Below are positions 606 through 28,980 of a stretch of 32,000 bases of DNA, piece after piece. Position numbers and translations under genes: made by a program. Source of the DNA: Candidatus Saccharimonadota bacterium (GTDB lineage: Bacteria > Patescibacteriota > Microgenomatia > UBA1406 > GWC2-37-13); contig CP064967.1 in assembly GCA_016699265.1 (NCBI GenBank), positions 630,001 through 662,000 of the forward strand, written 5' to 3'. Position 1 is the stretch's first letter, and each line of letters opens with the position of its first letter. Under the pieces are notes generated by a model. It was not told where the DNA came from. It saw only the letters and a list, made by a program, of their open reading frames with translations, and searched no databases.

Positions 606-611
606 TATAAT
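606..611 (+). promoter_or_regulatory. -10 box TATAAT, 6 nt upstream of the glyA ATG (leaderless geometry)
   Basis: TATAAT at 606-611, spacer agtcgt, ATG at 618. No SD is possible in this spacing. Confidence 0.55.
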
Positions 612-617
612 AGTCGT

Positions 618-1955
618 ATGAAACATCTCCCGAAGATTGATCCAGAAATAGCCCAACTTATTAAGAGCGAGGAAAAAAGACAAGAATCAACGCTCATGAT
701 GATCCCTTCTGAAAACGTCGCATCCTATGCGGTTGAGGAGGCGGTCGGATCCGCTTTTGGAAATAAGTATTCTGAAGGGTATCCGAATAGACGATATTAT
801 CAAGGTCAGGAATTTGCAGATAAACTCGAGTCATTAGTCATAGAAAGAGCCAAGAAACTTTTTAAAGTAGCCCATGTAAATGTCCAGGCATTGTCTGGCT
901 CTCCAGCCAACTTCGCCGTCTATACCGCTCTTCTGAAACCTGGGGCAACCATCATGGGACTTTCATTAAGCTCAGGAGGCCACCTCACTCATGGAGCTAG
1001 ATTTAACGCAAGCAGTATTTACTTCAACGCAGTTAATTACAATGTTCGACCAGATGGTTACATCGACTACGAGGCTCTAAAGAAGCAAGCAAAAAAAGTT
1101 AAACCAGACATTATTATCGCTGGCACAACGGCATACGCTCGAATTCTTAACTGGAAAAAATTTGCAGAAATTGCAGATAGCATCGGAGCATTGCTCTTGG
1201 CGGATATGTCGCATATCTCGGGACTAGTTGCTACTGGGGTATATCCTTCCCCAGTACCATTCGTCCACGTTGTGACGACTACCACTCACAAGACGCTTCG
1301 TGGTCCACGAGGAGCCCTCATCATGGTTACTAACAAAGGACTTAAAAAAGATCCGGATATGTCGACTAAAATTGACAAAGCTATAATTCCTGGGATTCAA
1401 GGAGGACCACACCTTAACACGATCGCTGGAATTGGCGTAACTTTAAAAGAGGCAAGCTCAAAAAAGTTTGTTACCTACTCTAAACAGATTCTTAAAAACG
1501 CAAAGGTGCTCGCCTCTGAGTTAATCAAGTATGACTTTTCATTAGTTACTGGAGGTACCGACTCCCACCTGATGCTTGTAGACTGTCGAAATAAAAAAAT
1601 CCTTGGCAACACTGCAGCGCTTGCCTGTGAGGCCTCCGGAATTATTCTCAACTACAACGGAGTACCATTTGATCCTAATCCCCCATTTTACCCTTCTGGA
1701 ATTCGTCTTGGGACACCAGGGATAACCAGTAGAGGAATGAAGGAACCAGAAATGAGGAAGATTGCATCATATATCGACGAAACTCTTACTGCTGTAGCAA
1801 AAACAAAAAAACGTCTTAACATCACCGATGAACAGGAACGCAAACGAGATATTCGTAAATCCCTGATTGACCAAACACCAGAGCTCAAGGAAATAAAAAA
1901 GCAAGTAGAGTCCTTATGTAAGCGTTTTCCTCTAAATAAGGTCTACCCGATATGA
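618..1955 (+). CDS. glyA: Serine hydroxymethyltransferase
   Basis: Translation shows MIPSENVAS, GNKYSEGYP.RRYY.G, SGSPAN and TTTTHKTLRGPRG (PLP-Lys region). ATG 618 is preferred over the track's GTG 600 because of the -10 box at 606. Confidence 0.95.
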   Translation: MKHLPKIDPEIAQLIKSEEKRQESTLMMIPSENVASYAVEEAVGSAFGNKYSEGYPNRRYYQGQEFADKLESLVIERAKKLFKVAHVNVQALSGSPANFAVYTALLKPGATIMGLSLSSGGHLTHGARFNASSIYFNAVNYNVRPDGYIDYEALKKQAKKVKPDIIIAGTTAYARILNWKKFAEIADSIGALLLADMSHISGLVATGVYPSPVPFVHVVTTTTHKTLRGPRGALIMVTNKGLKKDPDMSTKIDKAIIPGIQGGPHLNTIAGIGVTLKEASSKKFVTYSKQILKNAKVLASELIKYDFSLVTGGTDSHLMLVDCRNKKILGNTAALACEASGIILNYNGVPFDPNPPFYPSGIRLGTPGITSRGMKEPEMRKIASYIDETLTAVAKTKKRLNITDEQERKRDIRKSLIDQTPELKEIKKQVESLCKRFPLNKVYPI

Positions 1956-2257
1956 CATATTTGTTAATCGCTGCAAACGTAGCAATGCTCCTTACATTAG
2001 CTTTGGGCTTCCGAACACTTCCTCCAGCACTACCACTCTTTTACTCCAAACCCGGAGGTGAAATGCAGCTTGCGGTATGGTGGCTCATTCTGATTATTCC
2101 GGTATGTATGAATGGACTCTACATCCTAAACAATACAATTACCCGAAAGTTATTTTCTCAGTCCGACTTTGCGTATAAAATTATTCATTATGCCAATCTA
2201 CTACTCATCGGTATCTTCACTATGATTTTTATAAAAATTGTTACGCTTGTCTCATAA
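1952..2257 (+). CDS. Small integral membrane protein (about 3 TM segments), function unknown
   Basis: The start overlaps the glyA stop (ATGA) and the stop overlaps the next start (TAATG), which suggests translational coupling. The sequence is hydrophobic. Confidence 0.55.
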   Translation: MTYLLIAANVAMLLTLALGFRTLPPALPLFYSKPGGEMQLAVWWLILIIPVCMNGLYILNNTITRKLFSQSDFAYKIIHYANLLLIGIFTMIFIKIVTLVS

Positions 2258-3317
2258 TGGCACCGGTTTTGGCGCTCATACTTTCAGCATCATTTTCTTA
2301 CTGCTTTACCATTCCGACTATCTGGCTCGCAAAAAAACTCAGACTCGTCACCGACTCAAAAACTCGTAAGCACCCAGCACATACGCATACCGGAATCATT
2401 CCACGCGCAGGCGGAGTCCCGATATTTTTAGCGTTCCTTTGTAGTGCGTTCGTCTTTCTCGACCTTGATAAGATTGTTGTGGGTATCATGATTGCAAGCT
2501 TAATTCATGTGCTTATCGGTCTGTACGATGACTATATCGACAGTTCACCGTATTCACGATTCGTGGGTAATTTTCTCGTTGCGGCTATTGTGGTCGCAGC
2601 AGGACTTGGAATTCCCTATCTTTCAAATCCATTCGGGGGAGTCGTTCATTTTGACTCAATAGTTTGGTCATTTAGTCTAATTGGTCCTCACAGTATTCTC
2701 GTGATCGGTGATCTGCTTGCTATAATCTGCCTGTCTGGACTACAAATATGGTTAACTGGAGTAAGGGTGTAGACGGGCAGCTCCCTGGTTTCGTTGCGAT
2801 TGCAGGTATTTTTCTCGGTTTACTCTCTCAGAGGTTCGTGGCGCATGATGTGAGCGCACAGACTGTTATGACTTTGTCATTTATCTTTGCTGGAGCATAT
2901 CTTGGGTTTCTTCCATTTAATTTTTATCCCCAAAAAATAATGCCAGGATATGGCGGAGGAGGTATGGCAGGACTTTGGTTGGGAATTCTAGCAATTCTTT
3001 CATTCGGAAAAATCGGAACGGCCATCTTAATTCTTGCGATTCCAACTACAGATGCGGTCTATAGTATCTTAAGAAGACTCAAGAACAAGCAGTCACCATT
3101 CAAGGCAGACTGGGGTCATTTTCATCATAAACTCCTTGAGATTGGGTGGGGAAGGCGAAGGATTGCTGTATTTTACTGGAGTGTCTCCGCAGTTCTTGGA
3201 GTCGCCAGTTTATTTTTGCAGGGAGTCGAAAAGGTGATAGCATTTGCGATGGTGAGCATAGCCCTCCTAATCTTCATTCTCGCAATCGACCAGCTTAAAC
3301 TGAAAAAATTTAATTAA
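2257..3317 (+). pseudogene. Glycosyltransferase family 4 (WecA/TagO/MraY-like polyprenyl-phosphate HexNAc-1-P transferase) split by a frameshift near 2720-2740
   Basis: ORFs 2257..2772 and 2748..3317 are the two halves of one polytopic protein. GLYDDYID lies in the first half and N.VNW.KGVDGQLPG (the NxxNxxDGxDG motif) in the second. The second frame is open from 2712, and the phase changes by 1 nt. Confidence 0.8.
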
Positions 3318-3324
3318 TCTTCCT

Positions 3325-4545: not shown

Positions 4546-4551
4546 AACTTG

Positions 4552-4631
4552 TATCTTATAGCTTGTAACTTTATAATTACTTGACTATGAAAGTGCTTTT
4601 TTTCAAGATACAATTTTCGAGCTATAAGATA
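4552..4631. repeat. 12-bp perfect inverted repeat (tatcttatagct 4552-4563 / agctataagata 4620-4631) bracketing the miaB-rfbB spacer
   Basis: Verified by reverse complementing. The right arm ends on the A of the rfbB ATG. Confidence 0.8.
4572..4577 (+). promoter_or_regulatory. Candidate -10 box TATAAT, 9 nt upstream of a 15-codon uORF
   Basis: TATAAT at 4572-4577 and ATG at 4587. Confidence 0.35.
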
Positions 4632-4634
4632 TGA
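4587..4634 (+). CDS. Candidate 15-codon upstream ORF (MKVLFFKIQFSSYKI) whose TGA overlaps the rfbB ATG (ATGA)
   Basis: Read codon by codon: atg aaa gtg ctt ttt ttc aag ata caa ttt tcg agc tat aag ata tga. The stop at 4632-4634 overlaps ATG 4631-4633. Confidence 0.3.
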   Translation: MKVLFFKIQFSSYKI

Positions 4635-5644: not shown

Positions 5645-5671
5645 TTATTATTTATTATTTTTTATTTATTA
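5644..5671. repeat. Tandem heptamers (attatta tttatta ttttta-like tttatta) directly after the rfbB stop
   Basis: Four units with a 7-bp period, read directly. A further ACTAAGA ACTAAAA AATAAAA run lies at 5710-5730. Confidence 0.7.
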
Positions 5672-5736
5672 TTGAATTTGTATTTTTAAATTTCATAAAT
5701 TTAATAAAAACTAAGAACTAAAAAATAAAAACCATT

Positions 5737-7929: not shown

Positions 7930-8005
7930 TTAATTTTCATTTTGAAATTTTTAATTTTTATTCAGTATTAAATTATTTCAAAGTTCAAATTTCTAAATTC
8001 AAATT
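7930..8005. repeat. AT-rich spacer with 7-bp periodicity along nearly its whole length, ending in (TTCAAAN)-type heptamers 7977-8004
   Basis: It can be parsed in one phase as TTAATTT TCATTTT GAAATTT TTAATTT ... CAAAGTT CAAATTT CTAAATT CAAATT ATG. Confidence 0.65.
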
Positions 8006-8989: not shown

Positions 8990-8995
8990 TATAAT
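8990..8995 (+). promoter_or_regulatory. -10 box TATAAT, 6 nt upstream of ATG 9002 (leaderless geometry)
   Basis: TATAAT at 8990-8995, spacer cgaaat, ATG at 9002. Confidence 0.55.
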
Positions 8996-9001
8996 CGAAA
9001 T

Positions 9002-10132
9002 ATGAAAAAAGCAGTAATCATTATTCCTACATATAACGAAGCCTACGATATCGAGAAGATCCTCGAGTCTGTCTTCTCGATTACATCAAAGATAAATAAC
9101 TGGCAATTTACAGTTTTGGTTATAGACAGCACCTCACCAGATGGAACCTCGCAGATTGTAGAGGGACTAAAAAAGAAGCATAAGAATCTTGTCTTGATCA
9201 AGACTAAGAAGGAAGGACTTGGTAAAGCGTATATGACGGGTTTCACCTATGCTCTGGAAAAGCTTGAAGCCGATCTTTTGTTCGAAATGGATGCAGATTT
9301 TTCACACGACCCATCGGTTCTTCCAGAATTTGTTCGAAAGATAGACGAAGGTGCAGATTTTGTAATAGGATCACGTTATCGAAAAGGAGGATCGATTCCT
9401 GCAGACTGGGGAATGAACCGCAAAATTTATTCAGTACTTGGTAATCTCATAATTCGTCTCGGTTTTATGAAACTTAAGATTTCTGACTGGACTTCAGGAT
9501 ATAGAGCTATTAGAAGTTGGGTTATCAAATCGAGTCTCTCTTATATTCAAAACAGTACCGGTTACGTCTTTCAAGTTGCGCTTCTTGAAAAGGCTGTGAA
9601 ACTTCATGCTAGAGTCGAAGAGATACCAATCAACTTTGTAGATAGAAAATATGGTGTTTCAAAACTCAACTCAGGACAGTACATTAAAAATACCCTGCTA
9701 TATGTACTTACACACTCATCTTTTATTAAATATGTCTTGGTTGGCGGATCGGGTTTTATTATCGATTTTGGTCTCTCATACCTAATGATCGAAAGGGTTC
9801 ACACTCAGTTCCCAGTTTGGCTCGCTACTATAATGAGCGCAGAGGTCGCAATTATATGGAACTTCATCTGGAACAATTATTGGACATTCTCCCATAAGAA
9901 AGTCGGGCATAAATCACACGAATTTCTCACTAGTTTGGGCAAGTTTAATATTGTAGCGCTTGGCTCAATACTGATTCAAGCCGGACTAATCGAGCTTTGC
10001 GTGCGATCATTTGGACGCAGTTTTTGGTACATTTATAAAATTGCAATTTTAGGCTTTATAATTATTCCTTACTCATATGTCCTGTACAACAGAGTGATTT
10101 GGAAAGGCGGAAGACAGGAAGAAAAAAATTAG
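9002..10132 (+). CDS. Polyprenyl-phosphate sugar synthase: GT2 (DPM1/ArnC-like) domain fused to a C-terminal GtrA-like membrane domain
   Basis: AVIIIPTYNE, DSTSPDGT and EMDADFSHDP GT2 motifs, then four hydrophobic helices (FIKYVLVGGSGFIIDF...). Start moved from the track's GTG 8987 to ATG 9002 because of the -10 box. Confidence 0.8.
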   Translation: MKKAVIIIPTYNEAYDIEKILESVFSITSKINNWQFTVLVIDSTSPDGTSQIVEGLKKKHKNLVLIKTKKEGLGKAYMTGFTYALEKLEADLLFEMDADFSHDPSVLPEFVRKIDEGADFVIGSRYRKGGSIPADWGMNRKIYSVLGNLIIRLGFMKLKISDWTSGYRAIRSWVIKSSLSYIQNSTGYVFQVALLEKAVKLHARVEEIPINFVDRKYGVSKLNSGQYIKNTLLYVLTHSSFIKYVLVGGSGFIIDFGLSYLMIERVHTQFPVWLATIMSAEVAIIWNFIWNNYWTFSHKKVGHKSHEFLTSLGKFNIVALGSILIQAGLIELCVRSFGRSFWYIYKIAILGFIIIPYSYVLYNRVIWKGGRQEEKN

Positions 10133-10167: not shown

Positions 10168-11076
10168 CTAGTTGGTTACTTTCTCGGAGTACTGAGCAGC
10201 AACCCATCCCTCCTGCTCATCATTAAAAAGAATTTTATACCAATTTGGTTTTTCTTCAACCAGCTCGTAGCTTTCACCTGGATTTACCTTAGCGGACTCT
10301 GAAGCATCAATTGATGGCTCTGATCTAACTCTTAACCAACCTGTTGGCGTTTCTTTTATTAAAATTACAATTTTTTTAGCTCCATCATCACCTGCAGACG
10401 CCTTGGATGTGGGCTGTTGTTCTTTAGTGATATTCTTTATTGTTGCACTCTTAGTCGACTCTTGCTGAGACAGTTGATCAATTGCCAACTTGACACTCGT
10501 GGACGTCCTATGTCCAGCCTCTACATTAAGTTTCAGGGTTCTTCTAAAAAAACCTGGCAAATAGATCGATAGCTCGTGTGTCCCTTTTGGAACATCGTAT
10601 AGTATTAATGGAGCAACTCCTTTTTCGTCTAAATCTAGGTATACAAGCGCTCCCTGCGGATCCGACTCAACTGCGATTTCACCAACATTATCTTTAGTTG
10701 GTTTGGTTTCCATTTTTGTAAGAGTGGAGATCTCACCTGCAGTTGAGATATCAGAGTTTCCGAGAACTCGTCCGACATAGGTTACTGCATTTTTATATAC
10801 CTTTATTTTGCCTTGCCAGGTGGCCGATTGAGACGCTTCTTTATTTGGAATGAGCTTTATGAGATACTCACCCACCTTCATTTTTTGCCTAACTGGAGTA
10901 TTTCCAATCTGTATTTGGTCTAGATAGACTACTGACTGTGGAGTTGAAACTACTCTGATCTCTCCCAACTCAGTTTGACCGTTAAAAAAGAAGAACTTAA
11001 GAAGTAGGAAAATACCAAAAAGAACGACTAATACCGTTAGTAAAATTAACTTACCTTTGAATGAGCCTTTTCGCAT
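10168..11076 (-). CDS. Membrane-anchored envelope protein with two PEGA-like domains and a C-terminal SH3b domain
   Basis: N-terminal TM segment (LILLTVLVVLFGIFLLL), the PEGA-like segments STPQSVVYLD..IGNTP and SDPQGALVYLD..KGVAP..GTHEL, and the SH3b-like GWLRVRSEPS...WYKI...EGWV. Start set at Met16 (11076) on the basis of the -10 box. Confidence 0.7.
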   Translation of the reverse strand: MRKGSFKGKLILLTVLVVLFGIFLLLKFFFFNGQTELGEIRVVSTPQSVVYLDQIQIGNTPVRQKMKVGEYLIKLIPNKEASQSATWQGKIKVYKNAVTYVGRVLGNSDISTAGEISTLTKMETKPTKDNVGEIAVESDPQGALVYLDLDEKGVAPLILYDVPKGTHELSIYLPGFFRRTLKLNVEAGHRTSTSVKLAIDQLSQQESTKSATIKNITKEQQPTSKASAGDDGAKKIVILIKETPTGWLRVRSEPSIDASESAKVNPGESYELVEEKPNWYKILFNDEQEGWVAAQYSEKVTN

Positions 11077-11082
11077 ACCACT

Positions 11083-11088
11083 ATTATA
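11083..11088 (-). promoter_or_regulatory. -10 box TATAAT (minus strand), 6 nt upstream of ATG 11076
   Basis: The minus-sense sequence reads gagtaTATAATagtggtATG. Confidence 0.55.
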
Positions 11089-11415: not shown

Positions 11416-11444
11416 TTGACATTTTTGATTAGGTACTATACAAT
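11416..11444 (+). promoter_or_regulatory. Sigma70-type promoter TTGACA-N17-TACAAT, with the -10 box 6 nt upstream of ATG 11451
   Basis: TTGACA at 11416-11421, TACAAT at 11439-11444, spacer cctcgt, ATG at 11451. Confidence 0.7.
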
Positions 11445-11450
11445 CCTCGT

Positions 11451-12002
11451 ATGGAAAATACCGAAGGTTCAATTCTAGATCGAGGCTCTATCCAGTCGTT
11501 TCCAACAATGTCTCCAAATAAAAAAGGTGGATCAAAGAAACTTTGGATTCTCATTGTGCTTATTGCGGTCGCCGTTGCTGCATTTTTATTTCTAAGGCCA
11601 TCAGAAACGACAATTCAAAAACCTACACCAACGATTGAACCTACAACAATCATTGAAGAACCCCCGATTACGGATGAGACCAGTACGACTCCTACCACAG
11701 AACCGACAAAGGACGTCAAAAAAACCGCTACAGGGCCGAAGATACAGGTACAAAACGGTAGTGGTGCTGAGGGAGTGGCTGGTAAGATGCAGACTGCACT
11801 CTCAGACAGTGGTTATGATAATGTAGAAACCACAAATGCAGACAACTTCGACTACACAGAAGTTACAATCAAAGCAAAGGATGCATCGATGGAAACGGCC
11901 AAAAAAATTAAAACACAGCTGAAAGACTACTCGTTTGCAGAAGAAGTGGCTACTTTGAGTGATGACTCGGATTTTGACATCGTACTGATCGTAGGCAAGT
12001 GA
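11451..12002 (+). CDS. LytR_C-domain envelope protein (TM anchor, Thr/Pro-rich linker, LytR_C domain)
   Basis: TM segment LWILIVLIAVAVAAFLFL, a PT-rich linker, then IQVQNGSGAEGVAGKMQTAL..GYDNVETTNA..., which resembles LytR_C. Confidence 0.7.
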   Translation: MENTEGSILDRGSIQSFPTMSPNKKGGSKKLWILIVLIAVAVAAFLFLRPSETTIQKPTPTIEPTTIIEEPPITDETSTTPTTEPTKDVKKTATGPKIQVQNGSGAEGVAGKMQTALSDSGYDNVETTNADNFDYTEVTIKAKDASMETAKKIKTQLKDYSFAEEVATLSDDSDFDIVLIVGK

Positions 12003-12608: not shown

Positions 12609-12929
12609 TTAAAGCCACTGAACGTAGTCACAACCTTCTGAGGATTTTGTTTCTCGGTTCCAACTATTGGTTGAGCATTTTTTTAGTTTTTTTCCTGAGG
12701 CGCTGGTGTAGATTACAAGTTTAGAACCACATTTCGGACAGTCCTCATCTGTCTGTTCAGTTGCGCCTTTCTGCCACTCAACATAATCACATCCAGTCGA
12801 AGATCTAGTCTCTGCGTTCCAAACATTTGTCGAACAGCGTTTAAGTTTCTTACCTGATCGGGTAGTTGCCATTACTAAAGGACTCTGACACTTTGGGCAT
12901 TTCTCATCAAGGTTCTGTACTTCATCCAT
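12609..12929 (-). CDS. Tandem zinc-ribbon protein (two ~45-aa CPKC...C...GC modules, topoisomerase-type C4 finger-like)
   Basis: CPKCQSPLVMATTRSGKKLKRCSTNVWNAETRSSTGCDYVEW and CPKCGSKLVIYTSASGKKLKKCSTNSWNRETKSSEGCDYVQW. Start placed at Met32 (12929) because of the promoter at 12937-12964. Confidence 0.6.
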   Translation of the reverse strand: MDEVQNLDEKCPKCQSPLVMATTRSGKKLKRCSTNVWNAETRSSTGCDYVEWQKGATEQTDEDCPKCGSKLVIYTSASGKKLKKCSTNSWNRETKSSEGCDYVQWL

Positions 12930-12936
12930 AACAGTC

Positions 12937-12964
12937 ATAGTACCAGCTACAACAGAAAAGTCAA
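12937..12964 (-). promoter_or_regulatory. Promoter TTGACT-N16-TACTAT (minus strand), with the -10 box 7 nt upstream of ATG 12929
   Basis: The minus-sense sequence reads TTGACTtttctgttgtagctggTACTATgactgttATG. Confidence 0.6.
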
Positions 12965-12967: not shown

Positions 12968-14098
12968 TCAAATTTTGAATCCTAGTAAATCTAGCCCTTT
13001 TTTTAGCGTATCGCCGCCACATTCTACTTCCAGATAACGCAGGGCTTCCGGAGTATTAAAATCATCCTCAAGAAATCCTTCAACCTTTTTCCAATCACCA
13101 CTGTTTTGTTCTTGTAACCTAGAGCGTAGAGCTTTGAACTTTTTCTCGTAATTTTTTAATTCATCTTCTTCGTATTCCCATGGATGGCGGTAGTGGTGGG
13201 ACAAAAGCAACCAACGAATGGCGCAAGAGGAGTATTTTTTCAAAAGATCCTCCACCAAAACTAGATTACCAAGGGATTTAGACATCTTCTCTCCTTCAAA
13301 CATTACCATGCCGGTATGCATCCAAAACTGAACATATGGTTTTTTACCGGTAAAACTTTCGGACTGGGCAACTTCACTTTCATGATGAGGAAATATGAGG
13401 TCCCTACCACCACCGTGTATGTCGATCTGGTCACCAAGAGCCTCCTCTACCATTGCAGAGCATTCAATGTGCCATCCAGGTCTTCCCGGTCCCCAAGGTG
13501 ACTTCCAGTTAGGATCTCCTTTAGCTTTTACCCATAAAACAAAGTCCATTGGATTTTTTTTATTAGGATCTGTTGGATCGTTTCCTCTCTCCTGAGAGAT
13601 CATGAGCATCTGATCACGACCATATTTTGACAGAGATCCATAACCTTCGAACTTTGAAATATCAAAATATACATTCCCATTTTTTACGTAAGCAAAACCA
13701 TTCGCTATAAGTGCTTCATTCATTGAAATTATTTGACCCATCACGCTTGACGCCAAAATATACTTGTCTGGTGGTAATACATTCAGCGCGTTCATCTGCT
13801 TATGAAAGTGTTCGATCCACTGTCGAGCTATCTCGGTCCATGATTTACCTGCCTCCGCCGCCTGTTTTATCACGTCGTCTCCGTCATTGATGTCAGTTGC
13901 ATTCTGTATATAGGTAACGCTTAATCCTTTGAATTTTAAATATCTAATAAGAGTGTCGAAAACCGCGTATGTAAATGCATGACCTAAATGAGTAGCGTTG
14001 TTTGGAGTAATGCCGCAGACATATAGCTTAACAATACCTTTACTAAGGGGAACAAAATCCTTCTTATTTCTCGATAAAGAATCGTATAATTGGAGCAT
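12968..14098 (-). CDS. Class-I cysteine ligase of MshC-like architecture (CysRS catalytic core without an anticodon-binding domain); a pipeline would probably call it cysS
   Basis: HIGH motif HLGH, KMSKS present, WHIECS Zn/Cys-binding region. Only about 105 aa follow KMSKS. The motifs [28 protein letters not shown] and GNLVLVEDL resemble MshC as recalled. Confidence 0.75.
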
Positions 14099-14106
14099 AA
14101 AGGCTA

Positions 14107-14135
14107 ATTATACCGATTCGAGATCGTAATTTGAA
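14107..14135 (-). promoter_or_regulatory. Promoter TTCAAA-N17-TATAAT (minus strand), with the -10 box 8 nt upstream of ATG 14098
   Basis: The -35 hexamer is the last unit of the TTTGAAR heptamer repeat. Minus-sense TATAAT lies at 14112..14107. Confidence 0.55.
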
Positions 14136-14150
14136 GTTTGAAATTTGAAG
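14130..14150. repeat. Three tandem heptamers TTTGAAG TTTGAAA TTTGAAG
   Basis: Read directly. The 15-mer tttgaaatttgaagt is identical to 29217-29231. Confidence 0.85.
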
Positions 14151-14213
14151 TCAATATTTGAAAATTAAGCAATTAATAATTGAATATATATTAAAAACTT
14201 TAAATTAAAAATT

Positions 14214-14870
14214 ATGAAAAAGGTCTTATGTATTTTCGCTCATCCAGATGATGAGTCCTTCGGCCCTTCAGGAACCATTCACCTGCTTACGAAAACTCAT
14301 GAAGTCTACCTCGTCTGCATTACAAACGGAGACGCTGGAAAGAATTCTCATAAAACATCTAAGCTCCCTTTAGCTAAAATTCGCCAGCGTGAACTGAGAG
14401 CGTCCTCAAAATTTTTAGGCACAAAAAAAGTGTTTTTTCTAAACTACGGAGACGGTTCGTTAAATAATCTCCAGTATCACGACATCGCCAAAAAAATAAA
14501 GAAAATTAGTGATCGGCTCAAACCGGAAACTTTCATCACATTCGAACCTCGTGGCGTTTCCGGACACCTTGACCACATTGCCGCATCGATGATCACAAGT
14601 TACGTATTTGAGCGAACACCATATGTAAAAAAACTTATGCATTATTGCCTGAGTAAGGATCAGACAAGCTCAATGGGTGAGTATTTCATCTACAGACCAG
14701 AAGGTTACAGTGCGGATGAAATTGATGAGGTAGTAGACATTTCAACCGTTCGTGAGCTAAAAACTGCTTCAATGTATCTTCACAAATCACAGGTCCACGA
14801 TGCGCAAAGAATTATCAAATTATTTGGAAACTTTACCAAGGAACACTTCATTGTTACTGAAAGGAATTAA
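14214..14870 (+). CDS. PIG-L/LmbE-family N-acetylglucosaminyl deacetylase (MshB/BshB family)
   Basis: The N-terminal signature VLCIFAHPDDESFGPSG and the metal-binding GHLDH. Confidence 0.85.
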   Translation: MKKVLCIFAHPDDESFGPSGTIHLLTKTHEVYLVCITNGDAGKNSHKTSKLPLAKIRQRELRASSKFLGTKKVFFLNYGDGSLNNLQYHDIAKKIKKISDRLKPETFITFEPRGVSGHLDHIAASMITSYVFERTPYVKKLMHYCLSKDQTSSMGEYFIYRPEGYSADEIDEVVDISTVRELKTASMYLHKSQVHDAQRIIKLFGNFTKEHFIVTERN

Positions 14871-14880
14871 GTTCGGGTTG

Positions 14881-14886
14881 TATAAT
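14881..14886 (+). promoter_or_regulatory. -10 box TATAAT, 6 nt upstream of ATG 14893
   Basis: The sequence reads tgTATAATgtcactATG. Confidence 0.5.
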
Positions 14887-14892
14887 GTCACT

Positions 14893-15399
14893 ATGCCAAA
14901 TCATCCAGAACAAGGAGCTTTCGATCTCGGAGACAAGCGACGACCAGAACCATCTAGCGATCCTGACAGCTTTGAAGGAGTTAGAAGAACTATTTCAGGA
15001 GGGCGAAAAGGCGTTCGACCTAATCCTACCGACCCACTCCTTAAAGGAGCTACCGAATTGCTTGAAGAACCAGAGGCAAAAGAATTGCCAGTTTATACTC
15101 ATACTATCGCCCCCCATAAAAGAGTTTATTATATCGATGAAGATCCTAGTGGCCAGCGCTTACCAAGTTGGACAACTAGAACTCTACATCTGTGTGAAAC
15201 GAACCAAACTATTCTGGTTACTGAAGCAAGAAGGAGAAAGAAATTGTTTACAACCACAGAGGACAGTGAAGCTCATCGAGAAGGTAGACCTTTATCGTTT
15301 TTTCCTGCAGGGGCTAGGGTTGCCACATCCGATGCAGTACGCCGCAAGACAATGGGCATGAACCAACCTCCATCAACGCCACTCCCTCAGCCCCGCTAA
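14893..15399 (+). CDS. Hypothetical Pro/Arg/Glu/Thr-rich protein (168 aa), probably largely disordered
   Basis: This is the Met32-onward part of ORF 14800..15399. The frame has A/T-rich third positions, G-rich first positions and host-like cca/cct/gga/gaa codons. The overlapping 158-aa frame does not. Confidence 0.55.
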   Translation: MPNHPEQGAFDLGDKRRPEPSSDPDSFEGVRRTISGGRKGVRPNPTDPLLKGATELLEEPEAKELPVYTHTIAPHKRVYYIDEDPSGQRLPSWTTRTLHLCETNQTILVTEARRRKKLFTTTEDSEAHREGRPLSFFPAGARVATSDAVRRKTMGMNQPPSTPLPQPR

Positions 15400-15404: not shown

Positions 15405-15410
15405 TATCAT
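15405..15410 (+). promoter_or_regulatory. Possible -10 box TATCAT, 6 nt upstream of the argS ATG
   Basis: The sequence reads TATCATatctgcATG. It is a weaker hexamer with no clear -35. Confidence 0.35.
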
Positions 15411-15416
15411 ATCTGC

Positions 15417-17108
15417 ATGCTACAAACTGAAATAGAGCTTCTCATTATCGCTGCATTGAAATCTCTCAACCTTCAAGATGCATCTCCTGCACTAGCTCAC
15501 ATAGCAGATCAAAAGCTTGGAGACTACACAACCAGCATCGCACTCAAGCTAGCGCCCAAACTTAAAGCTACTCCAATGGAACTCGCACAGAAGATCGCCA
15601 ACTCAATTCCAAAATCCGAACTCGTCGATAGGGTAGAGGTTCTAAAACCTGGTTTTATTAATATTCATGTATCCCCGCTTCAATTATTTAAACAATTAAA
15701 GGAGTTCTCCTCCAGAAACTTCAATTTATCTTCCTTGTTTTCTAAAAAAAATAAAACAGTAATAGTTGAGTACTCCTCACCTAATATCGCTAAGCCCTTC
15801 ACCATCGGACATTTACGATCCACGATTATTGGCGACGCGATTGCAAACATGCTCCAAGCAACAGGCTATGACGTAAAACGAGATAACCACGTTGGCGACT
15901 GGGGAACTCAGTTTGGGAAACTTATTTATGCAATTCAAGAGTGGGGGAGTCTCGAAGAAATTGAAAGATCTCCCCGACCAGTAAAAGTTTTAGTGGATCT
16001 CTATGTTAAGTTCCACGAAGAGGCAGACAAAGACAAAGACCTGGAAGAACGCGCAAGAAAGAAATTTAAATTATTAGAAAACGGTGATGATCAAATTCGA
16101 GCTCTTTGGAATAACTGCATCGAATGGTCATGGAAGGAATTTGATTTTATATATAAAAAGCTAGGAATTGTTTTTACAGAAAATGAAGGCCGCGGATATG
16201 GCGAATCGTTCTTCGACAAAGACCTGATGGCAGTAGTTGACGAACTCAGCAAGAAAAAAATACTTCATAAAAGCGAAGGTGCTGAGATTGTTGAGTTTAC
16301 GGATGAAAAATATCCCCCACTTATGATCACTAAGAGTGACGGCGCATCCTTGTACTCAACTCGAGATCTTGCGACAGATAAATTTAGACTAAAAAAGTAC
16401 GGCAAGGATATAGTGATTATCAATGAAGTTGGAGCCGAACAGACACTCTACTTTAGACAGCTGTATGAGGTTGAAAGAATGCTTGGATGGTTTACGACTG
16501 GTCAGCGCATCCATGTTGGACACGGTCTCTACAGGTTTAAGGACCAAAAAATGTCTACGAGAAAAGGGAATACTATTTGGTTAGAGGACGTGATATCTGA
16601 GGCAGAGGTCCGAGCTTCCAAAATGGGAAATAATCCTTCTGTTTCTACAAGCATTGCTATCGCTTCACTAAAATGGAATGATCTGAAGCATTCACCACAA
16701 CAAGATGTGATTTTTGACTGGGATCAAATTCTCAATATGCAGGGAAACTCAGGACCATATATGCTCTACACTATCGTGAGAGCTATCAGCATTCTTGGCA
16801 AAGCAGGGGAGTCTGATTTAGAAAATGGGGGAGAGACTCCCCTTTCCGGAGATGAACTCAACCTCGCAAGATTTCTATCTAAGTTCCCTGAAGTGGCACA
16901 ACAAGCTACCACACAGTATCTTCCATCCACTCTAGCCACTTACCTATTTCAACTCGCTCAGCAATACAACGTTTTTTATCAAACCTCCCCTATCTTAAAA
17001 TCTGATGAAAAAACGAAAGAGCTGCGTTTGATGATTACAGCTGCAACTGCAAACGTCTTAAAATCAGGCCTCAAATTACTCGGCATCCAAACAGTCGACA
17101 AAATGTAA
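15417..17108 (+). CDS. argS: Arginyl-tRNA synthetase
   Basis: SPNIAKPFTIGHLRST (HIGH-type region), MSTRKG (KMSKS-equivalent), a DALR-type C-terminus, and a length of 563 aa. Confidence 0.93.
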   Translation: MLQTEIELLIIAALKSLNLQDASPALAHIADQKLGDYTTSIALKLAPKLKATPMELAQKIANSIPKSELVDRVEVLKPGFINIHVSPLQLFKQLKEFSSRNFNLSSLFSKKNKTVIVEYSSPNIAKPFTIGHLRSTIIGDAIANMLQATGYDVKRDNHVGDWGTQFGKLIYAIQEWGSLEEIERSPRPVKVLVDLYVKFHEEADKDKDLEERARKKFKLLENGDDQIRALWNNCIEWSWKEFDFIYKKLGIVFTENEGRGYGESFFDKDLMAVVDELSKKKILHKSEGAEIVEFTDEKYPPLMITKSDGASLYSTRDLATDKFRLKKYGKDIVIINEVGAEQTLYFRQLYEVERMLGWFTTGQRIHVGHGLYRFKDQKMSTRKGNTIWLEDVISEAEVRASKMGNNPSVSTSIAIASLKWNDLKHSPQQDVIFDWDQILNMQGNSGPYMLYTIVRAISILGKAGESDLENGGETPLSGDELNLARFLSKFPEVAQQATTQYLPSTLATYLFQLAQQYNVFYQTSPILKSDEKTKELRLMITAATANVLKSGLKLLGIQTVDKM

Positions 17109-20175: not shown

Positions 20176-20268
20176 AATAAAAGTTCTTATTTGTCATTTC
20201 TTAATTCTTAATCAATAATGCTTGTAATTGAACTTAAGTACTAACCGTAATTCTTAATGTATTTTAGT

Positions 20269-20296
20269 ACTAAGAACTAAAAACTAAGAACTAAAG
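20269..20296. repeat. Four tandem heptamers ACTAAGA ACTAAAA ACTAAGA ACTAAAG
   Basis: Read directly. The 13-mer ACTAAGAACTAAA also occurs at 5710-5722. Inverted TTCTTAA units lie at about 20198-20211 and 20250-20256. Confidence 0.8.
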
Positions 20297-20860: not shown

Positions 20861-20948
20861 ATTTATTTAGTAATTTTTATTTTTGTAATTTGTATTAAAT
20901 TTCTATTTTTTAAATAATTAATAAAAATTAAAAATTATTAATTAAGAA

Positions 20949-21812
20949 TTAATCAAGTTCTCGTTGTAATTCTTCTAATATTTTCTTTGCCTTACCCGAA
21001 ATTTTATCCGGAACCTTGATTTTCATTATCACGTATAGATTTCCTTTTTGTGTGCTGTTTGGGTATTGAACTCCTTCTCCTTTCAATCTTACTAAAGTGC
21101 CTGAGATTGTTCCTTTTCGAACTTTAAGAGTTACTTTACCATCAAGCGTTTCAACCTCGACCGTTCCTCCAAGAACTGCCGTAGGATAGGATAGATTTTT
21201 TTCGGTGTAAAGATCTTGACCTTCTCTTCTGAAGACAGCATCTGGCATAACCGCTACCAGTAAATCAAATTCATTAAATCTAATCCTATTCCCGTCGTTT
21301 ACACCTGCTGGAACTTTAACACTTCTTCTTTTACCATCAATAGACACTTCTTTCTCTATTCCATGAACAGCTTCCCGGAAGGTCAGCTTAATGCTATAGA
21401 CCGGACGCCTTGCTCTTCTTTGTCCTCCACCAAAACCAAAAAATTGTTCAAAAATTTCGAAAGGATCCGATCCACCAAACTGTGAAGGATCGAATCCTCC
21501 AAATGGATTTCCACCGGTCGAACTGTACGAGTAGCTGAATGGACCTTGTTGATAACCTTGTCCTCCCGCTTGATTTGCAGCAGAACCGAATCCTCCTCGT
21601 TCAAAACCCTCATGACCTACTTGATCGTAGGTAGACTTTTTTTTTGGATCTGACAAAACCTCATAAGCCTTGTTTATTTCCTTAAATTTGTCAGTTGCAC
21701 CGGTAGCCTTATTACGGTCAGGATGCCACTTAAGAGCTAGCTTGCGGTAAGCTGATTTAATTTCGGCCGCTGAGGCTGATTTACCTACACCCAGTACGCT
21801 ATAAAAATCCAT
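20949..21812 (-). CDS. dnaJ: DnaJ-family co-chaperone, class B/CbpA-like (J domain, G/F-rich region and C-terminal domains, no CxxCxGxG zinc finger)
   Basis: DFYSVLGV...HPDRNK J domain and a G/F-rich linker. The 287-aa protein contains no cysteine at all. Confidence 0.85.
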
Positions 21813-23817: not shown

Positions 23818-23869
23818 AATTTCTAAGTGCTCTGATTGCACTAATTTCTAACGAACTTCCAATTTCTAA
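23818..23869. repeat. Three copies of AATTTCTAA (23818, 23843, 23861) around a short hairpin (agtgc-N7-gcact, 23826-23842) in the grpE-dnaK spacer
   Basis: Read directly. The minus sense is TTAGAAATT. Confidence 0.7.
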
Positions 23870-23917
23870 TATGTTGTGTCATTGTTGTTTATTTAGATTA
23901 ATTAAAAATTTGGTTAA

Positions 23918-24414: not shown

Positions 24415-24416
24415 AA

Positions 24417-25154
24417 TTATCCTTTATCGTTAATAATGCTTTCGATTAAATGTGCAAAATATTTAACCTGTGGAGTGACCGATTCATAGTACATTCGTTT
24501 GGGTCCTAAAACTCCGATAAATCCCTTCATTTTCTCTGTATTAATATCGCCCAGAATACTCGCGCAGGTTTCATAAACCGGATCGCTAAAGTCATCCTCA
24601 CCTAACATGATATACACTTCATCCTGATCCGATTGAACCTTTGTTAAGATCTTTCCCCAGTACTGTAGTTCGTCTAACTTCTTAAATAACGCTCGAGAAA
24701 CATCTAGGTTGAAAAACTCTGGAATACTTAATAAATTTCCAACTCCCGCATAGTACACTTCACCGGTGCTTGTAACTGCGATTGAAAGTAATCCGGTTTT
24801 TTGTGCAAGAACCTTTGTAGCGTGGGATAACATTTTTTGGTCGTCAGCTCGCTCATCCCAAATTCCATTCTTATATGCTACTTCTTCTCCCGTGGAAAGA
24901 TCCTTTTCTTTCATTAAGTGCTTTATGTAAAACCGAAATCCCTTTGCAGAAGGTATTCTTCCTGAAGAGAAATAATCTTTTTTTATGTACCCTTTCTTAG
25001 CCAACTCAACCATCTCGCTTCTGATGGTAGCCGGAGACACGCCTAGTTTATACTTCTTCTCAAGAATTTCAGATCCCACAGCAAGTCCGCTTTCGGTATA
25101 CTCACGAATCAAGGCTCGAAGCACATCTGTTTGTCTGTTTGTTAGGTCATCCAT
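24417..25154 (-). CDS. hrcA: Heat-inducible transcriptional repressor HrcA (short form)
   Basis: LTNRQTDVLRALIREYTESGLAVGSEIL...SPATIRSEMVELAKKGYI winged-helix N-terminus. Start set at Met29 (25154), which has the SD AAGGA 7 nt upstream. The upstream part of the track ORF contains the promoter and CIRCE. Confidence 0.85.
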   Translation of the reverse strand: MDDLTNRQTDVLRALIREYTESGLAVGSEILEKKYKLGVSPATIRSEMVELAKKGYIKKDYFSSGRIPSAKGFRFYIKHLMKEKDLSTGEEVAYKNGIWDERADDQKMLSHATKVLAQKTGLLSIAVTSTGEVYYAGVGNLLSIPEFFNLDVSRALFKKLDELQYWGKILTKVQSDQDEVYIMLGEDDFSDPVYETCASILGDINTEKMKGFIGVLGPKRMYYESVTPQVKYFAHLIESIINDKG

Positions 25155-25201
25155 ATTTATATCCTTGGCTAAAAGGCTTGTCCAGAGCGTTAGCCGAAGG
25201 G

Positions 25202-25228
25202 TTAGCAATAGTATAGTAACTCTGCTAA
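25202..25228. promoter_or_regulatory. Degenerate CIRCE-like operator TTAGCA-N15-TGCTAA
   Basis: TTAGCAATA-gtatagtaa-CTCTGCTAA compared with the consensus TTAGCACTC-N9-GAGTGCTAA. The outer 6 bp of each arm are perfect and the inner 3 bp diverge. It overlaps the -10 box of the hrcA promoter. Confidence 0.55.
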
Positions 25229-25238
25229 AAGATGTCAA
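25210..25238 (-). promoter_or_regulatory. hrcA operon promoter TTGACA-N17-TATACT (minus strand), leadered (about 49-nt 5' UTR)
   Basis: The minus-sense sequence reads TTGACAtcttttagcagagttacTATACT. Confidence 0.65.
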
Positions 25239-25291
25239 CCCCGATTTTATCGAGAGTTGATTCTCAAAATAGTCGGCATCAAGAAATGAAC

Positions 25292-25810
25292 CTATTTCAC
25301 ATGTGAAATAGGGGGTTTTGCAGCGACCAAGTATCGATTTTCTGTAGCAGGACAGGGGGAAATCACTTCAAGTCTTGGATCTTCTGCAAGAAACTTACCG
25401 TATAGATGTATTGCATCCTCGCTTAAAGCATTCTCTCTATCCGAATACCACCGCTTAACAAATCCTCTCGCTACTAATTCCCCTATCGTTCGACCCACTA
25501 ATCTAGGGATATGCGTAGCATAAGGTAGATTTTTAGTGAAATTGTGAGAACGAACAGCTCGAAACTCAATACCTTTATCTCTTCGGTTTTTTTGTAATTC
25601 TCCTCGAACCTCTGCTAAGAATTCGCCATTCTTACTTACTGTAAAAGCCCCAAAAGGAGGAATATTTGGAAACCGCTCATCATCCTTTACTGTTAATCTA
25701 ACACTGAGTCGTTCAAGGTTTGAGTTAGCTTCTTGATTGAATTCAAATAGTACCCGATCATCTGTTTTTTCTATGTCGATGGGGTGAATATCTCCAGCTG
25801 GATTTTCCAT
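25292..25810 (-). CDS. Hypothetical protein (172 aa), no family recognised
   Basis: A long ORF with host-like composition. TATAAT lies 8 nt upstream of its ATG. Confidence 0.55.
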   Translation of the reverse strand: MENPAGDIHPIDIEKTDDRVLFEFNQEANSNLERLSVRLTVKDDERFPNIPPFGAFTVSKNGEFLAEVRGELQKNRRDKGIEFRAVRSHNFTKNLPYATHIPRLVGRTIGELVARGFVKRWYSDRENALSEDAIHLYGKFLAEDPRLEVISPCPATENRYLVAAKPPISHVK

Positions 25811-25818
25811 TACGAACT

Positions 25819-25824
25819 ATTATA
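25819..25824 (-). promoter_or_regulatory. -10 box TATAAT (minus strand), 8 nt upstream of ATG 25810
   Basis: The minus-sense sequence reads gaTATAATagttcgtaATG. Confidence 0.5.
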
Positions 25825-25833
25825 TCAACTGGG

Positions 25834-25839
25834 TATAAT
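25834..25839 (+). promoter_or_regulatory. -10 box TATAAT, 6 nt upstream of the nfo ATG 25846
   Basis: The sequence reads gggTATAATaaacccATG. Confidence 0.55.
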
Positions 25840-25845
25840 AAACCC

Positions 25846-26673
25846 ATGTATCGAATTGGAGCACATGTATCTATAGCAGGAGGACACATAAAAGGTATAG
25901 ACAGAGCTCTGGAGATTGGGTGTAATGCAGTTCAGATCTTCTGCGCTTCACCTCGAGGATGGAACTTTGCCAAGATTCCAGACAGCGACGCTGATGCCTT
26001 CTCGAAGTTCGCGATAAAACAAGATGTAACCCCAATTTATTTTCACGCCTCTTATCTCATTAACCTTGCGGACACCGGACGAATTGGAACGCTTTCCAAG
26101 CAACTCCTTACTCACGAACTCAAGATTGCATCGTCAATGGGGGTAAGGGGAAGCATCGTTCATCTCGGGTCATATAAAGATAATGGAAAGAATCACAAAC
26201 ATCTTTGCGATCACATCTCGATGATTCTTGAGAAGGCGCCATCTGACGTTGAGTTCATTATCGAAAATGCCGGAAACAGAAAGATAGGAAAAGACATAGA
26301 AGAGATTGCTGAAATTATTGAGGAGGTAAAGGATAAGCGTCTTAAAGTCTGCTTAGATACTTGTCACCTCCATGCAGCGGGATACGATCTGAGTACCGAG
26401 AAATCCTACGAAGACTTTATTACCGTATTTGATGACAAAATCGGACTGGACAGACTTTCGGTTTGGCATCTCAACGACAGTCGAGATCCGTTTGGCTCAC
26501 TTAGAGATCGTCATGACAATCTTGGAGAAGGTCTTGTGGGAATGGATGTATTTAAGCATCTTCTGAACCACCCCAAGACCAAACATATTCCCGTCATTCT
26601 CGAGGTTCCTGGTTTTAAGGGTGAGGGTCCGGATAAGCAGAACGTTGATATTGTAAAGTCACTTATCGTATGA
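25846..26673 (+). CDS. nfo: Endonuclease IV (AP endonuclease, TIM-barrel)
   Basis: IGAHVSIAGG, VQIF.ASPRGW, IVHLGS, LDTCHLHAAGYD and WHLNDS motifs. Confidence 0.9.
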   Translation: MYRIGAHVSIAGGHIKGIDRALEIGCNAVQIFCASPRGWNFAKIPDSDADAFSKFAIKQDVTPIYFHASYLINLADTGRIGTLSKQLLTHELKIASSMGVRGSIVHLGSYKDNGKNHKHLCDHISMILEKAPSDVEFIIENAGNRKIGKDIEEIAEIIEEVKDKRLKVCLDTCHLHAAGYDLSTEKSYEDFITVFDDKIGLDRLSVWHLNDSRDPFGSLRDRHDNLGEGLVGMDVFKHLLNHPKTKHIPVILEVPGFKGEGPDKQNVDIVKSLIV

Positions 26674-27194
26674 CCTCTCCGATCGTCCTCGCCTTTGAAG
26701 ATGCGAAGAAGAATATTGCTCTCGAAGCAGAAACGATCAAAGCCTTTCAAAACCGACTGAAGAAAAACACGACCTATCTCAAGTCAGATGGCGTTGCCGA
26801 TCATTTTTGTGTGGGCGTTCTCGTGGTAAATAAAAAACAGAAGAAGATGTTTGTTGGTCACCACATAAAGTCTGATCATTGGATGGGAGCGGGAGGCCAC
26901 ATGGAAAAGGGAGAATCTCCGCTTGATACCGTAATTAGAGAATGTAAAGAAGAATTAGGCCTCGAGGTTATTGATGCCACCATGTTTGATCTTACTCATT
27001 TCGATGATGTAAACAGATCCGACTGTATGCAGCACTATGATTTTTTCTATCGAGTGGAGTTAGAAACACTTCCTAACCTTACCGCCGACAAAGGAGAGTT
27101 TCATGAGGCTGGATGGTATTCCTTCGACGAAGTACTTAACAAAAAACTTTTACCAAAGTACCGAGCATCTCTCGTAAAAGTTTTTGAGATGTAG
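26670..27194 (+). CDS. Nudix hydrolase
   Basis: Nudix box GGHMEKGESPLDTVIRECKEELGLEV (GX5EX7REUXEEXGU). The start overlaps the nfo stop (ATGA). Confidence 0.85.
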   Translation: MTSPIVLAFEDAKKNIALEAETIKAFQNRLKKNTTYLKSDGVADHFCVGVLVVNKKQKKMFVGHHIKSDHWMGAGGHMEKGESPLDTVIRECKEELGLEVIDATMFDLTHFDDVNRSDCMQHYDFFYRVELETLPNLTADKGEFHEAGWYSFDEVLNKKLLPKYRASLVKVFEM

Positions 27195-27208
27195 ATGAGC
27201 TTCCGCTA

Positions 27209-27616
27209 TTAGTCTTCATACCTATCGTGATATGCCTTCTTATCTCCATACTCTATGTAGCCTTGATGATCTACGAGCTCTATATACCCAGGGAAGCTTT
27301 TATGTTTTATTCCGCACCAGTACTTCTCTGTTTCAAGACCTATCGCTGTGGCGTAGTGAAAGAAGCCATTAGCGTAACTGCAATAAAGACAGGAGAGTTT
27401 TTCGATGGTGGTAATATACGAAAGTTGCGCCCGATCAAACACTATATAATTGTTACGTTTCACTAGCGCTATGCCACAAAGCGGAAAACATATATGGTGG
27501 TAGATCTCTAGAATTATATCGGTGAAGACTATAGGAACGAGTGGAAGCCAAATAAAAGGAATAACTACGATCCGAGAAAGAATATCGACAAGTCTCTTGT
27601 GTTTTTTATATAGCAT
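27209..27616 (-). CDS. Hypothetical Cys-rich membrane protein
   Basis: One or two N-terminal TM segments, then SCLYCSYANG...YWCGIKHK. Start set at Met20 (27616), preceded by the SD-like AGAGGA. This avoids overlap with cca. Confidence 0.55.
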   Translation of the reverse strand: MLYKKHKRLVDILSRIVVIPFIWLPLVPIVFTDIILEIYHHICFPLCGIALVKRNNYIVFDRAQLSYITTIEKLSCLYCSYANGFFHYATAIGLETEKYWCGIKHKSFPGYIELVDHQGYIEYGDKKAYHDRYED

Positions 27617-27630
27617 TAAGGTTCCTCTAG

Positions 27631-27636
27631 TATAAT
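27631..27636 (+). promoter_or_regulatory. -10 box TATAAT, 6 nt upstream of the cca ATG 27643
   Basis: The sequence reads tagTATAATgaagcaATG. Confidence 0.55.
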
Positions 27637-27642
27637 GAAGCA

Positions 27643-28980
27643 ATGATTCAACTACCAGCAGAGATTCACGCATTTATGGATATCTTTATCAATAAGGGAT
27701 ATCGTATTTATGTTGTAGGTGGAGCAGTTCGCAATCTTCTTCTTGGAATGGATGTTATTAACTGGGACTTCACCACCAACGCGAAGCCTGAAGAACTTAA
27801 AGAACTATTTCCAGATAGTTTTTATAACAATACATTCGGAACTGTGGGTATAAAGTTTGAAGGTCATGTGCTTGAGGTGACCACTCATCGAAAGGAAAGC
27901 GACTACTCTGACGCTCGTCATCCTGACACGATTGAATGGGCTGAAACGATTGAGGAGGACCTAGCTCGTCGTGATTTTACAATAAATGCAATAGCCCTTC
28001 ACTATATTGATAGTAAACCGGTCTTGGTCGATCCTTACAATGGACAAGAAGATCTTAAGCAAAAACGTATAGTAACCGTTGGAGATCCAGATACTAGATT
28101 TGCTGAGGATGCACTTCGATTGATGCGAGCGGTTAGACTTACGGCTGAACTTGGTTTTCTCCTTGATGAAAAGACGAGAGATTCAATGAGAAATAATGCC
28201 ACTCTAATCAATAAAGTTTCCGGTGAAAGAATACGAGATGAGCTTCTTAGGATAATTTCATCGAATAATCCTGCTGAGGGCGTTCTCTTCTTACGAAGCA
28301 CGGGAATCTTAGAACAGATACTCCCCGAGCTTGATGCATGTTTCACTATAGAACAGAAGAGTCCCAAACGTCATCATATCTATGATGTTGGTACTCATTT
28401 AGTAATGTCTCTTAAGCACTGTCCATCAAAAGACCCTGTTACCAGACTGGCTACTCTACTACATGACATCGGAAAGGTTCAGACTTACAATAAAGATGAG
28501 ACAGGACTCATTACCTTCCACAATCATGAGGTTGTTGGCGACAAACTTGTGCAAAAAATTGCTGACCGACTAAAGCTTTCCAATAAACAGAAAGAAAAGC
28601 TGGTCCTTCTTGTGAAACATCATCAGTTCACTGTCCAAGAAGATCAAACCGATAAGGCGATACGAAGATTTATTCGTGACGTTACTAAAGAATATCTTCA
28701 GGACATGCTCGACCTACGTACAGGAGATCGTATTGGTTCAGGTGCCACGCCAACTTCATGGAGACTCGATCTTTTCAAAAAACGTCTTGAGGAAGTTCAG
28801 AAACACGTATTTTCAATTACAGATCTAAAAATTGATGGAAATGACGTGATGAAACAACTCAATCTAAAACCAGGAAAACAGATTGGAGAAATTCTCAGTA
28901 AGTTATTTACCGAAATTGAGGAAGGAAGACTAAAAAATGAAAAGGAAGCTCTTCTCTCCGAGTTAAAAAAGATTGCCTAA
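27643..28980 (+). CDS. cca: CCA-adding tRNA nucleotidyltransferase (PolyA_pol head and HD domains)
   Basis: VVGGAVRNLLLG, RRDFTINA, RLMRAVRL, and the HD domain LLHDIGK. Confidence 0.85.
   Translation: MIQLPAEIHAFMDIFINKGYRIYVVGGAVRNLLLGMDVINWDFTTNAKPEELKELFPDSFYNNTFGTVGIKFEGHVLEVTTHRKESDYSDARHPDTIEWAETIEEDLARRDFTINAIALHYIDSKPVLVDPYNGQEDLKQKRIVTVGDPDTRFAEDALRLMRAVRLTAELGFLLDEKTRDSMRNNATLINKVSGERIRDELLRIISSNNPAEGVLFLRSTGILEQILPELDACFTIEQKSPKRHHIYDVGTHLVMSLKHCPSKDPVTRLATLLHDIGKVQTYNKDETGLITFHNHEVVGDKLVQKIADRLKLSNKQKEKLVLLVKHHQFTVQEDQTDKAIRRFIRDVTKEYLQDMLDLRTGDRIGSGATPTSWRLDLFKKRLEEVQKHVFSITDLKIDGNDVMKQLNLKPGKQIGEILSKLFTEIEEGRLKNEKEALLSELKKIA

Follow-up and report, generated by a model that had tools for sequence, protein, structure and literature searches.

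In genomes of GeneMarkS-2 group C, examples of which are Actinobacteria such as Mycobacterium tuberculosis as well as Deinococcus deserti, the first genes of operons have a Pribnow box at a distance of 6-8 nt from their start; 25-50% of the operons are predicted to be leaderless, and in D. deserti 167 of 262 mapped genes are of this type (Lomsadze et al., 2018; PMC6028130). A similar arrangement is encountered in a 32,000-nt stretch (the window; bases 630,001-662,000, contig CP064967.1) of the complete, single-contig genome (928,688 bp, 40.9% G+C) of Candidatus Saccharimonadota bacterium (GCA_016699265.1), an ultra-small, uncultured member of the Microgenomatia within the Patescibacteriota, whose arginyl-tRNA synthetase ArgS has its closest informatively named relatives in Levybacteria, Roizmanbacteria, Woesebacteria, and metagenome-assembled genomes (MAGs) of Microgenomates. 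In eleven genes of the window, a -10 hexamer ends 6-8 nt before an ATG. These boxes are probably placed such that transcripts start on the AUG, which would make leaderless mRNAs, i.e., mRNAs devoid of a 5′ untranslated region (UTR), widespread at the heads of operons.

As predicted from sequence, the genome resembles those of group C in its Pribnow boxes near first-in-operon starts, in the large share of operons concerned and in the AUG start, and our estimate that roughly 40-50% of the transcription units may be leaderless falls within the 25-50% predicted for group C. In contrast to group C, the arrangement occurs in a lineage of the candidate phyla radiation (CPR), the Microgenomatia, in an AT-rich genome and with a canonical TGnTATAAT element. 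Moreover, whereas the remaining genes of group C are described as possessing ribosome-binding sites of the Shine-Dalgarno (SD) type (PMC6028130), SD sequences are not enriched in the present genome. The missing SD sites are a departure from the usual description of group C, not from leaderless initiation itself.

The spacing between hexamer and start codon is described here by the gap, i.e., the number of nucleotides that separate the hexamer's last T from the A of the ATG. If both strands of the whole genome are searched independently of any annotation, the 685 TATAAT hexamers are followed by ATG 27, 78, 33, 30, and 20 times at gaps of 5, 6, 7, 8, and 9 nt, respectively, compared with about 9 times at every other gap between 0 and 40. 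Such a genome-wide histogram had been proposed as a check in the initial annotation of the window, and its peak lies at gap 6. No spacing peak after TATAAT exists genome-wide for GTG, TTG, CTG, ATC, or ATA. At gap 6, 79% of the ATGs open a reading frame (ORF) of at least 80 amino acids, whereas the share is 30% for gaps of 12-40 nt and 10% for gaps of 0-4 nt. De novo enrichment of pentamers by gap 5′ of first ATGs identifies only TATAA, ATAAT, GTATA, and TGCTA, each at the matching offset; all of these are pieces of (TG)cTATAAT or TATACT, and no SD word is among them. The gene set used for further counts was obtained with a simple Markov-model gene caller and comprises 785 genes; as these cover 79% of the genome, the set is incomplete. 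With starts assigned from coding potential alone, -10 matches of at least 5 out of 6 positions occur 78 times at gap 6 versus about 8 times at other gaps. When near-equivalent starts are allowed, 278 genes possess a box at gaps 5-9, versus about 100 in shifted-gap controls, and the start codon is ATG in 242 of the 278; we estimate the real excess of predicted leaderless genes at about 150-190.

By its distribution, the box marks operon heads and not internal genes, being present at 52% of the genes with a divergent upstream neighbor, compared with 17% of those located at most 15 nt from an upstream gene on the same strand, a value close to the control rate of about 13%. The hexamer is preceded by TGn in 75 of the 278 boxed genes (17 expected), and sites aligned on the hexamer display T and G at positions -3 and -2 and a weak T-T-G near -23 to -21. 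The match to TTGACA at spacers of 16-18 nt is slightly better than in controls (2.87 versus about 2.5). A pyrimidine is found at -1 in 70% of the gap-6 sites, as expected of a transcription start site. Among the 87 TGnTATAAT elements of the genome, 34 occupy the leaderless position, 27 are followed by a called start at a distance of 10-300 nt, and 6 are intragenic and have no start in the next 300 nt downstream. Judged by these features, the boxes are extended -10 promoters with weak -35 elements.

RNA polymerase normally initiates 7 nt past the -10 hexamer, on a purine that follows a pyrimidine. With sigma-70-type extended -10 promoters (TGnTATAAT, weak -35) whose hexamer usually ends 6 nt, and in fewer cases 5 or 7-9 nt, ahead of the start codon, a transcript would begin on the A of the AUG at gap 6 and 1-3 nt earlier at longer gaps. 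The resulting mRNAs would contain neither a 5′ UTR nor an SD site and would be translated by the known leaderless route, in which the ribosome and the initiator tRNA bind a 5′-terminal AUG. The other genes would rely on coupling or on leaders rich in A and poor in G, and SD pairing would be limited to HU, bS20, ATP synthase subunit c, and a few more. Genes for IF3, bS21, and a four-domain bS1 are present in the genome. Transcription that would begin on the start codon is also reminiscent of archaeal leaderless genes (GeneMarkS-2 group D), to which most operons belong in archaea. In contrast, the promoter box of group D is located about 26 nt upstream (PMC6028130), whereas a bacterial -10 element at 6 nt is found here and RpoD is encoded in the genome.

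The eleven pairs of hexamer and ATG reported in the initial annotation are all present in the window as listed there, with a gap of 6 nt in eight, 7 nt in one and 8 nt in two cases. Its count of seven exact TATAAT hexamers at one offset needs correction, as there are six at gap 6 and eight within gaps 6-8. On the plus strand, glyA (606..620) has TATAAT at 606-611, a gap of 6 and its ATG at 618; position 1 of the serine hydroxymethyltransferase (SHMT) profile aligns with residue 8 and position 2 of the Pfam SHMT profile with residue 5. The GT2-GtrA glycosyltransferase gene (8990..9004, plus strand; TATAAT 8990-8995, gap 6, ATG 9002) aligns from position 2 of the GT2 profile at residue 6. For argS (15405..15419, plus strand; TATCAT 15405-15410, gap 6, ATG 15417), profile position 3 corresponds to residue 4, and for the minus-strand CysS paralog named "MshC-like" in the initial annotation (14096..14135; TTCAAA 14135-14130, N17, TATAAT 14112-14107, gap 8, ATG 14098), position 1 of the cysS profile corresponds to residue 2. 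In nfo (plus strand; TATAAT 25834-25839, gap 6, ATG 25846), profile position 1 coincides with residue 1. According to these alignments, the ATG adjacent to the box is the real start of glyA, argS, nfo, and the CysS-like gene. In cca (27631..27645, plus strand; TATAAT 27631-27636, gap 6, ATG 27643), the head domain of the CCA-adding enzyme begins at residue 22.

Divergent from nfo is a gene for a 172-residue protein (minus strand; TATAAT 25824-25819, gap 8, ATG 25810). The two ATGs (25808..25848) are only 35 bp apart, so that both TATAAT boxes lie within the spacer and the -35 region of each promoter lies inside the first codons of the opposite gene. The remaining sites belong to the gene for a PEGA/SH3b protein (11074..11088, minus strand; TATAAT 11088-11083, gap 6, ATG 11076), the gene for a LytR_C protein (11416..11453, plus strand; TTGACA 11416-11421, N17, TACAAT 11439-11444, gap 6, ATG 11451), whose promoter matches 11 of 12 positions in a two-hexamer promoter scan, and the gene for a Zn-ribbon protein (12927..12964, minus strand; TTGACT 12964-12959, N16, TACTAT 12942-12937, gap 7, ATG 12929), the -10 element of which is preceded by TG. 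A last site (14857..14895, plus strand; CTGAAA, N18, TATAAT 14881-14886, gap 6, ATG 14893) precedes a hypothetical gene for 168 residues (ORF 14893-15399), which was missed by the gene caller and for which profile searches gave no family match.

The geometry is shared by relatives. In most of 30 relatives ranging from the same genus to the same order, TATAAT-N6-ATG exceeds the reversed pattern 3- to 20-fold and in three of them 2- to 3-fold, an excess existing in all 30. In a phylum-wide sample of 200 genomes, a strong excess is seen in 7 of 9 genomes of the same class; among the 190 genomes from other classes, 50 display a strong excess and 60 none, which suggests that the trait is shared by about a quarter of the other families and missing from about a third. 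From these counts, the predicted leaderless geometry is clade-wide for the order and patchy across the Patescibacteria. At individual loci, orthologs of argS (40-69% identity) retain TAnnnT at gaps 6-9 in 12 of 17 cases with flanks that cannot be aligned, and in two Woesebacteria-type genomes a leader containing AGAGGA replaces the abutting -10 element, which may mean that SD-like leaders play a larger part elsewhere in the class. All six genomes of the genus, among them the present one, keep the nfo geometry, as do about 6 of 7 further genomes of the family; order-level relatives mostly possess AT-rich leaders at this gene.

Geometry, statistics, promoter anatomy, protein starts, and conservation can be read directly from the genomes. 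The spacing peak, the promoter anatomy, the restriction to operon heads, the N-terminal homology, and the conservation in relatives all support the proposal of the initial annotation that leaderless mRNAs would be widespread at operon heads. Several points weigh against it. Transcription start positions and the mode of translation are deduced from promoter geometry and from what is known of leaderless initiation. About 100 of the 278 box calls are expected to be false positives, and one such false positive is the TTG start with a "TAAAAT" box that the gene caller assigned to hrcA and that was discarded, as the HrcA profile places the start at ATG 25154. The gene caller covers 79% of the genome and fractions per operon are therefore rough. 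A generic scan for -35/-10 hexamer pairs yields no excess (33 versus 41.7 in shuffles), hence the -35 element is weak, and it is the -10/TGn element that carries the argument; full two-hexamer promoters were dropped as carriers of the signal. Also, gaps of 7-9 may leave leaders of 1-3 nt.

This last point leads to the most serious alternative, according to which the promoters are real and the transcripts are not strictly leaderless, either having leaders of 1-5 nt or being translated from a downstream codon and not from the adjacent ATG. In its favor, gaps 7, 8, and 9 are enriched as well, with three of the eleven window sites being at gap 7 or 8. However, the gap found most often is exactly 6, at which +1 coincides with the A, and the peak is specific for ATG, which a mere distance between promoter and gene would not require. 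In addition, profiles align from positions 1-6 at the adjacent ATG and a downstream start would cut conserved residues. We consider this alternative unlikely and favor transcripts starting on the AUG.

A second alternative would regard TATAAT as an AT-rich, non-SD motif for ribosome binding or translational enhancement within longer mRNAs, in the style of GeneMarkS-2 group B, and not as a promoter. Its appeal lies in the usage of SD sequences. The 3′ end of the 16S rRNA (...GGATCACCTCCTTTCT / ...GAUCACCUCCUUUCU), inspected for an anti-SD sequence as suggested in the initial annotation, retains CCUCC, i.e., an intact anti-SD. GGAG, GAGG, AGGA, and AAGG have no positional peak before starts genome-wide, and SD pentamers occur at positions -18 to -4 of 29 of the 785 genes versus 27 of 785 in a control window, which is no enrichment; SD tetramers show no excess there either. 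SD heptamers are found before 6 called starts (2.3 expected). The initial annotation had ascribed SD-like AAGGA or AGAGGA sites to internal and leadered genes, which does not hold genome-wide given these pentamer counts; its examples (AAGGA before hrcA and grpE, AGAGGA before ATG 27616) are of background frequency, and the AAGGA before hrcA is not retained in relatives that likewise have a leader. In a genome without SD enrichment another upstream signal could be expected, and upstream regions are A/T-rich at all genes. In contrast, internal operon genes have the motif at control level, its sequence is identical to the sigma-70 -10 consensus and is accompanied by a TGn extension and, at 17 nt, by a weak -35, and its spacing peak is sharp to one nucleotide. 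Furthermore, at 25810/25846 the boxes of both divergent genes are inside the 35-bp spacer. A translational motif is, in our view, a very improbable explanation, and promoters that would start transcripts on the AUG remain the preferred one.

Among the few genes with long SD sequences (GGAGGTGA-like) are those for HU (genome positions 888154-888423, minus strand), bS20 (559779-560030, plus strand), ATP synthase subunit c (AtpE; 444956-445183, minus strand), two RRM RNA-binding proteins (77697-77966, plus strand; 806194-806469, minus strand), and a membrane protein (433535-434185, minus strand). Of 26 relatives, 25 conserve the SD of the HU gene, a GGAGGTG or GGGGGTG positioned 5-14 nt ahead of the ATG. 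The small number of genes with long SDs and the conservation at the HU gene suggest that the anti-SD is probably functional, yet used by very few genes. The region around genome positions 171000-173200 (minus strand) stands apart from the remainder, as several neighboring ORFs there possess strong SD-like sequences (CGAAGGAGGTAGTG-ATG, CGAAAGGAGGA...); it may consist of foreign DNA.

The 5′ regions of genes outside the predicted leaderless set are A-rich and G-poor (6-15% G at -10 to -1), with T at -1 in 50-58%. Many intergenic spacers, especially AT-rich ones before such genes, harbor short tandem arrays with a period of 7 nt. Examples are located at window positions 551-592, 5645-5732, 7930-8003, 14130-14151, 20198-20212, 20269-20295, and 20922-20952, and also 5′ of nfo (locus L101); the units are ATACGAT, TTATTAT, TAAAAAC, TTAATTT, TTCAAAA, TTTGAAG, ACTAAAA, and TAAAAAT. 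In the Bacteroidota, as known from work on Flavobacterium, initiation is SD-independent and the anti-SD is retained. The present genome is similar to those of Bacteroidota and group B (PMC6028130) in that CCUCC is kept, SD sequences are nearly absent, upstream regions are A-rich and G-poor, and strong SDs exist at very few genes. It differs from group B, where a single non-SD motif is found before every gene, internal or not (PMC6028130), as TATAAT occurs here only at operon heads and with the anatomy of a promoter; unlike in Bacteroidota, no Bacteroidota-type promoter is involved.

The initial annotation had also stated that an AT-rich background should give far fewer such sites, and this is borne out by dinucleotide shuffles of the window. 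Six of its 24 TATAAT hexamers are followed by ATG at gap 6, versus a mean of 0.39 and a maximum of 3 in 200 shuffles, and eight at gaps 6-8, versus a mean of 1.1 and a maximum of 5. Chance arising from AT-rich composition, or start codons picked to fit, has a negligible probability, for although the number of TATAAT hexamers equals expectation in the window (24.1 in shuffles) and stays below the mononucleotide expectation in the genome (685 versus 1236), the ATG offset is far beyond shuffles and neighboring gaps in annotation-free counts, the peak persists with coding-only starts, and all 30 relatives reproduce it when compared with the reversed-pattern control.

The leadered contrast case of the window is hrcA (25152..25238, minus strand), with TTGACA at 25238-25233, N17, TATACT at 25215-25210, and its start at ATG 25154, since position 1 of the HrcA profile aligns with residue 33 of the TTG ORF. 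The -10 element is wrapped by a CIRCE-like inverted repeat, TTAGCAGAG-N9-TATTGCTAA (TTAGCA...TGCTAA), which is predicted to be the HrcA operator. In the present genome, about 50 nt lie between promoter and ATG. In most relatives the hrcA ATG directly follows TGCTAA(T), at gaps of 7-9, and hrcA would thus be leaderless there. Own genome and about eight relatives have 20-50 nt and no conserved SD between operator and ATG. Such insertions between a fixed operator and the ATG in some genomes suggest that leaders are gained or lost at a fixed promoter.

The CysS paralog (12968-14098, minus strand) consists of 376 residues that match positions 1-325 of the 466 positions of the cysS profile, and the C-terminal anticodon-binding part is missing. 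Its interpretation as plain cysS was withdrawn, as a full-length cysS exists elsewhere in the genome (307166-308563). Divergently oriented to the paralog is a deacetylase gene (14214-14870, plus strand), which has weak, below-cut-off matches to BshB/MshB models and which we read as coding for an LmbE-type enzyme. The pair hints at a cysteine-ligating step of a pathway resembling those for low-molecular-weight thiols in a CPR bacterium.

Full-text literature searches yielded no paper dealing with leaderless genes or SD usage in Microgenomates and none that describes the present pattern in CPR bacteria, and the mentions of "leaderless" checked there were reference-list entries or unrelated. Tsurumaki et al. 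(2022) discuss nothing beyond a loss of the anti-SD in some Parcubacteria. The mechanism of leaderless initiation is already known elsewhere, and it is the lineage, Microgenomates, that is added here. It is an even chance that a broader regime exists in the Microgenomatia and patchily in other Patescibacteria, in which about half of the transcription units would be leaderless, nearly all other genes would be SD-independent and a fully intact anti-SD would be maintained only for a few conserved genes with very high expression (HU, bS20, ATP synthase subunit c, and RRM proteins). If true, this two-part regime would combine the actinobacterial and the Bacteroidota modes in organisms with reduced ribosomes.

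In practical terms, SD-based prediction will misplace start codons in such genomes, and the rule relating -10 box and ATG offers a simple and accurate predictor of starts and promoters for CPR MAGs. For functional metagenomics it would mean that promoters of CPR bacteria are similar to those of E. coli (TGnTATAAT), yet that their coding sequences come without ribosome-binding sites. A large radiation of uncultured bacteria with reduced ribosomes would be added to the groups that make heavy use of leaderless mRNAs, and an anti-SD that is retained and probably serves few genes bears on the evolution of initiation modes.

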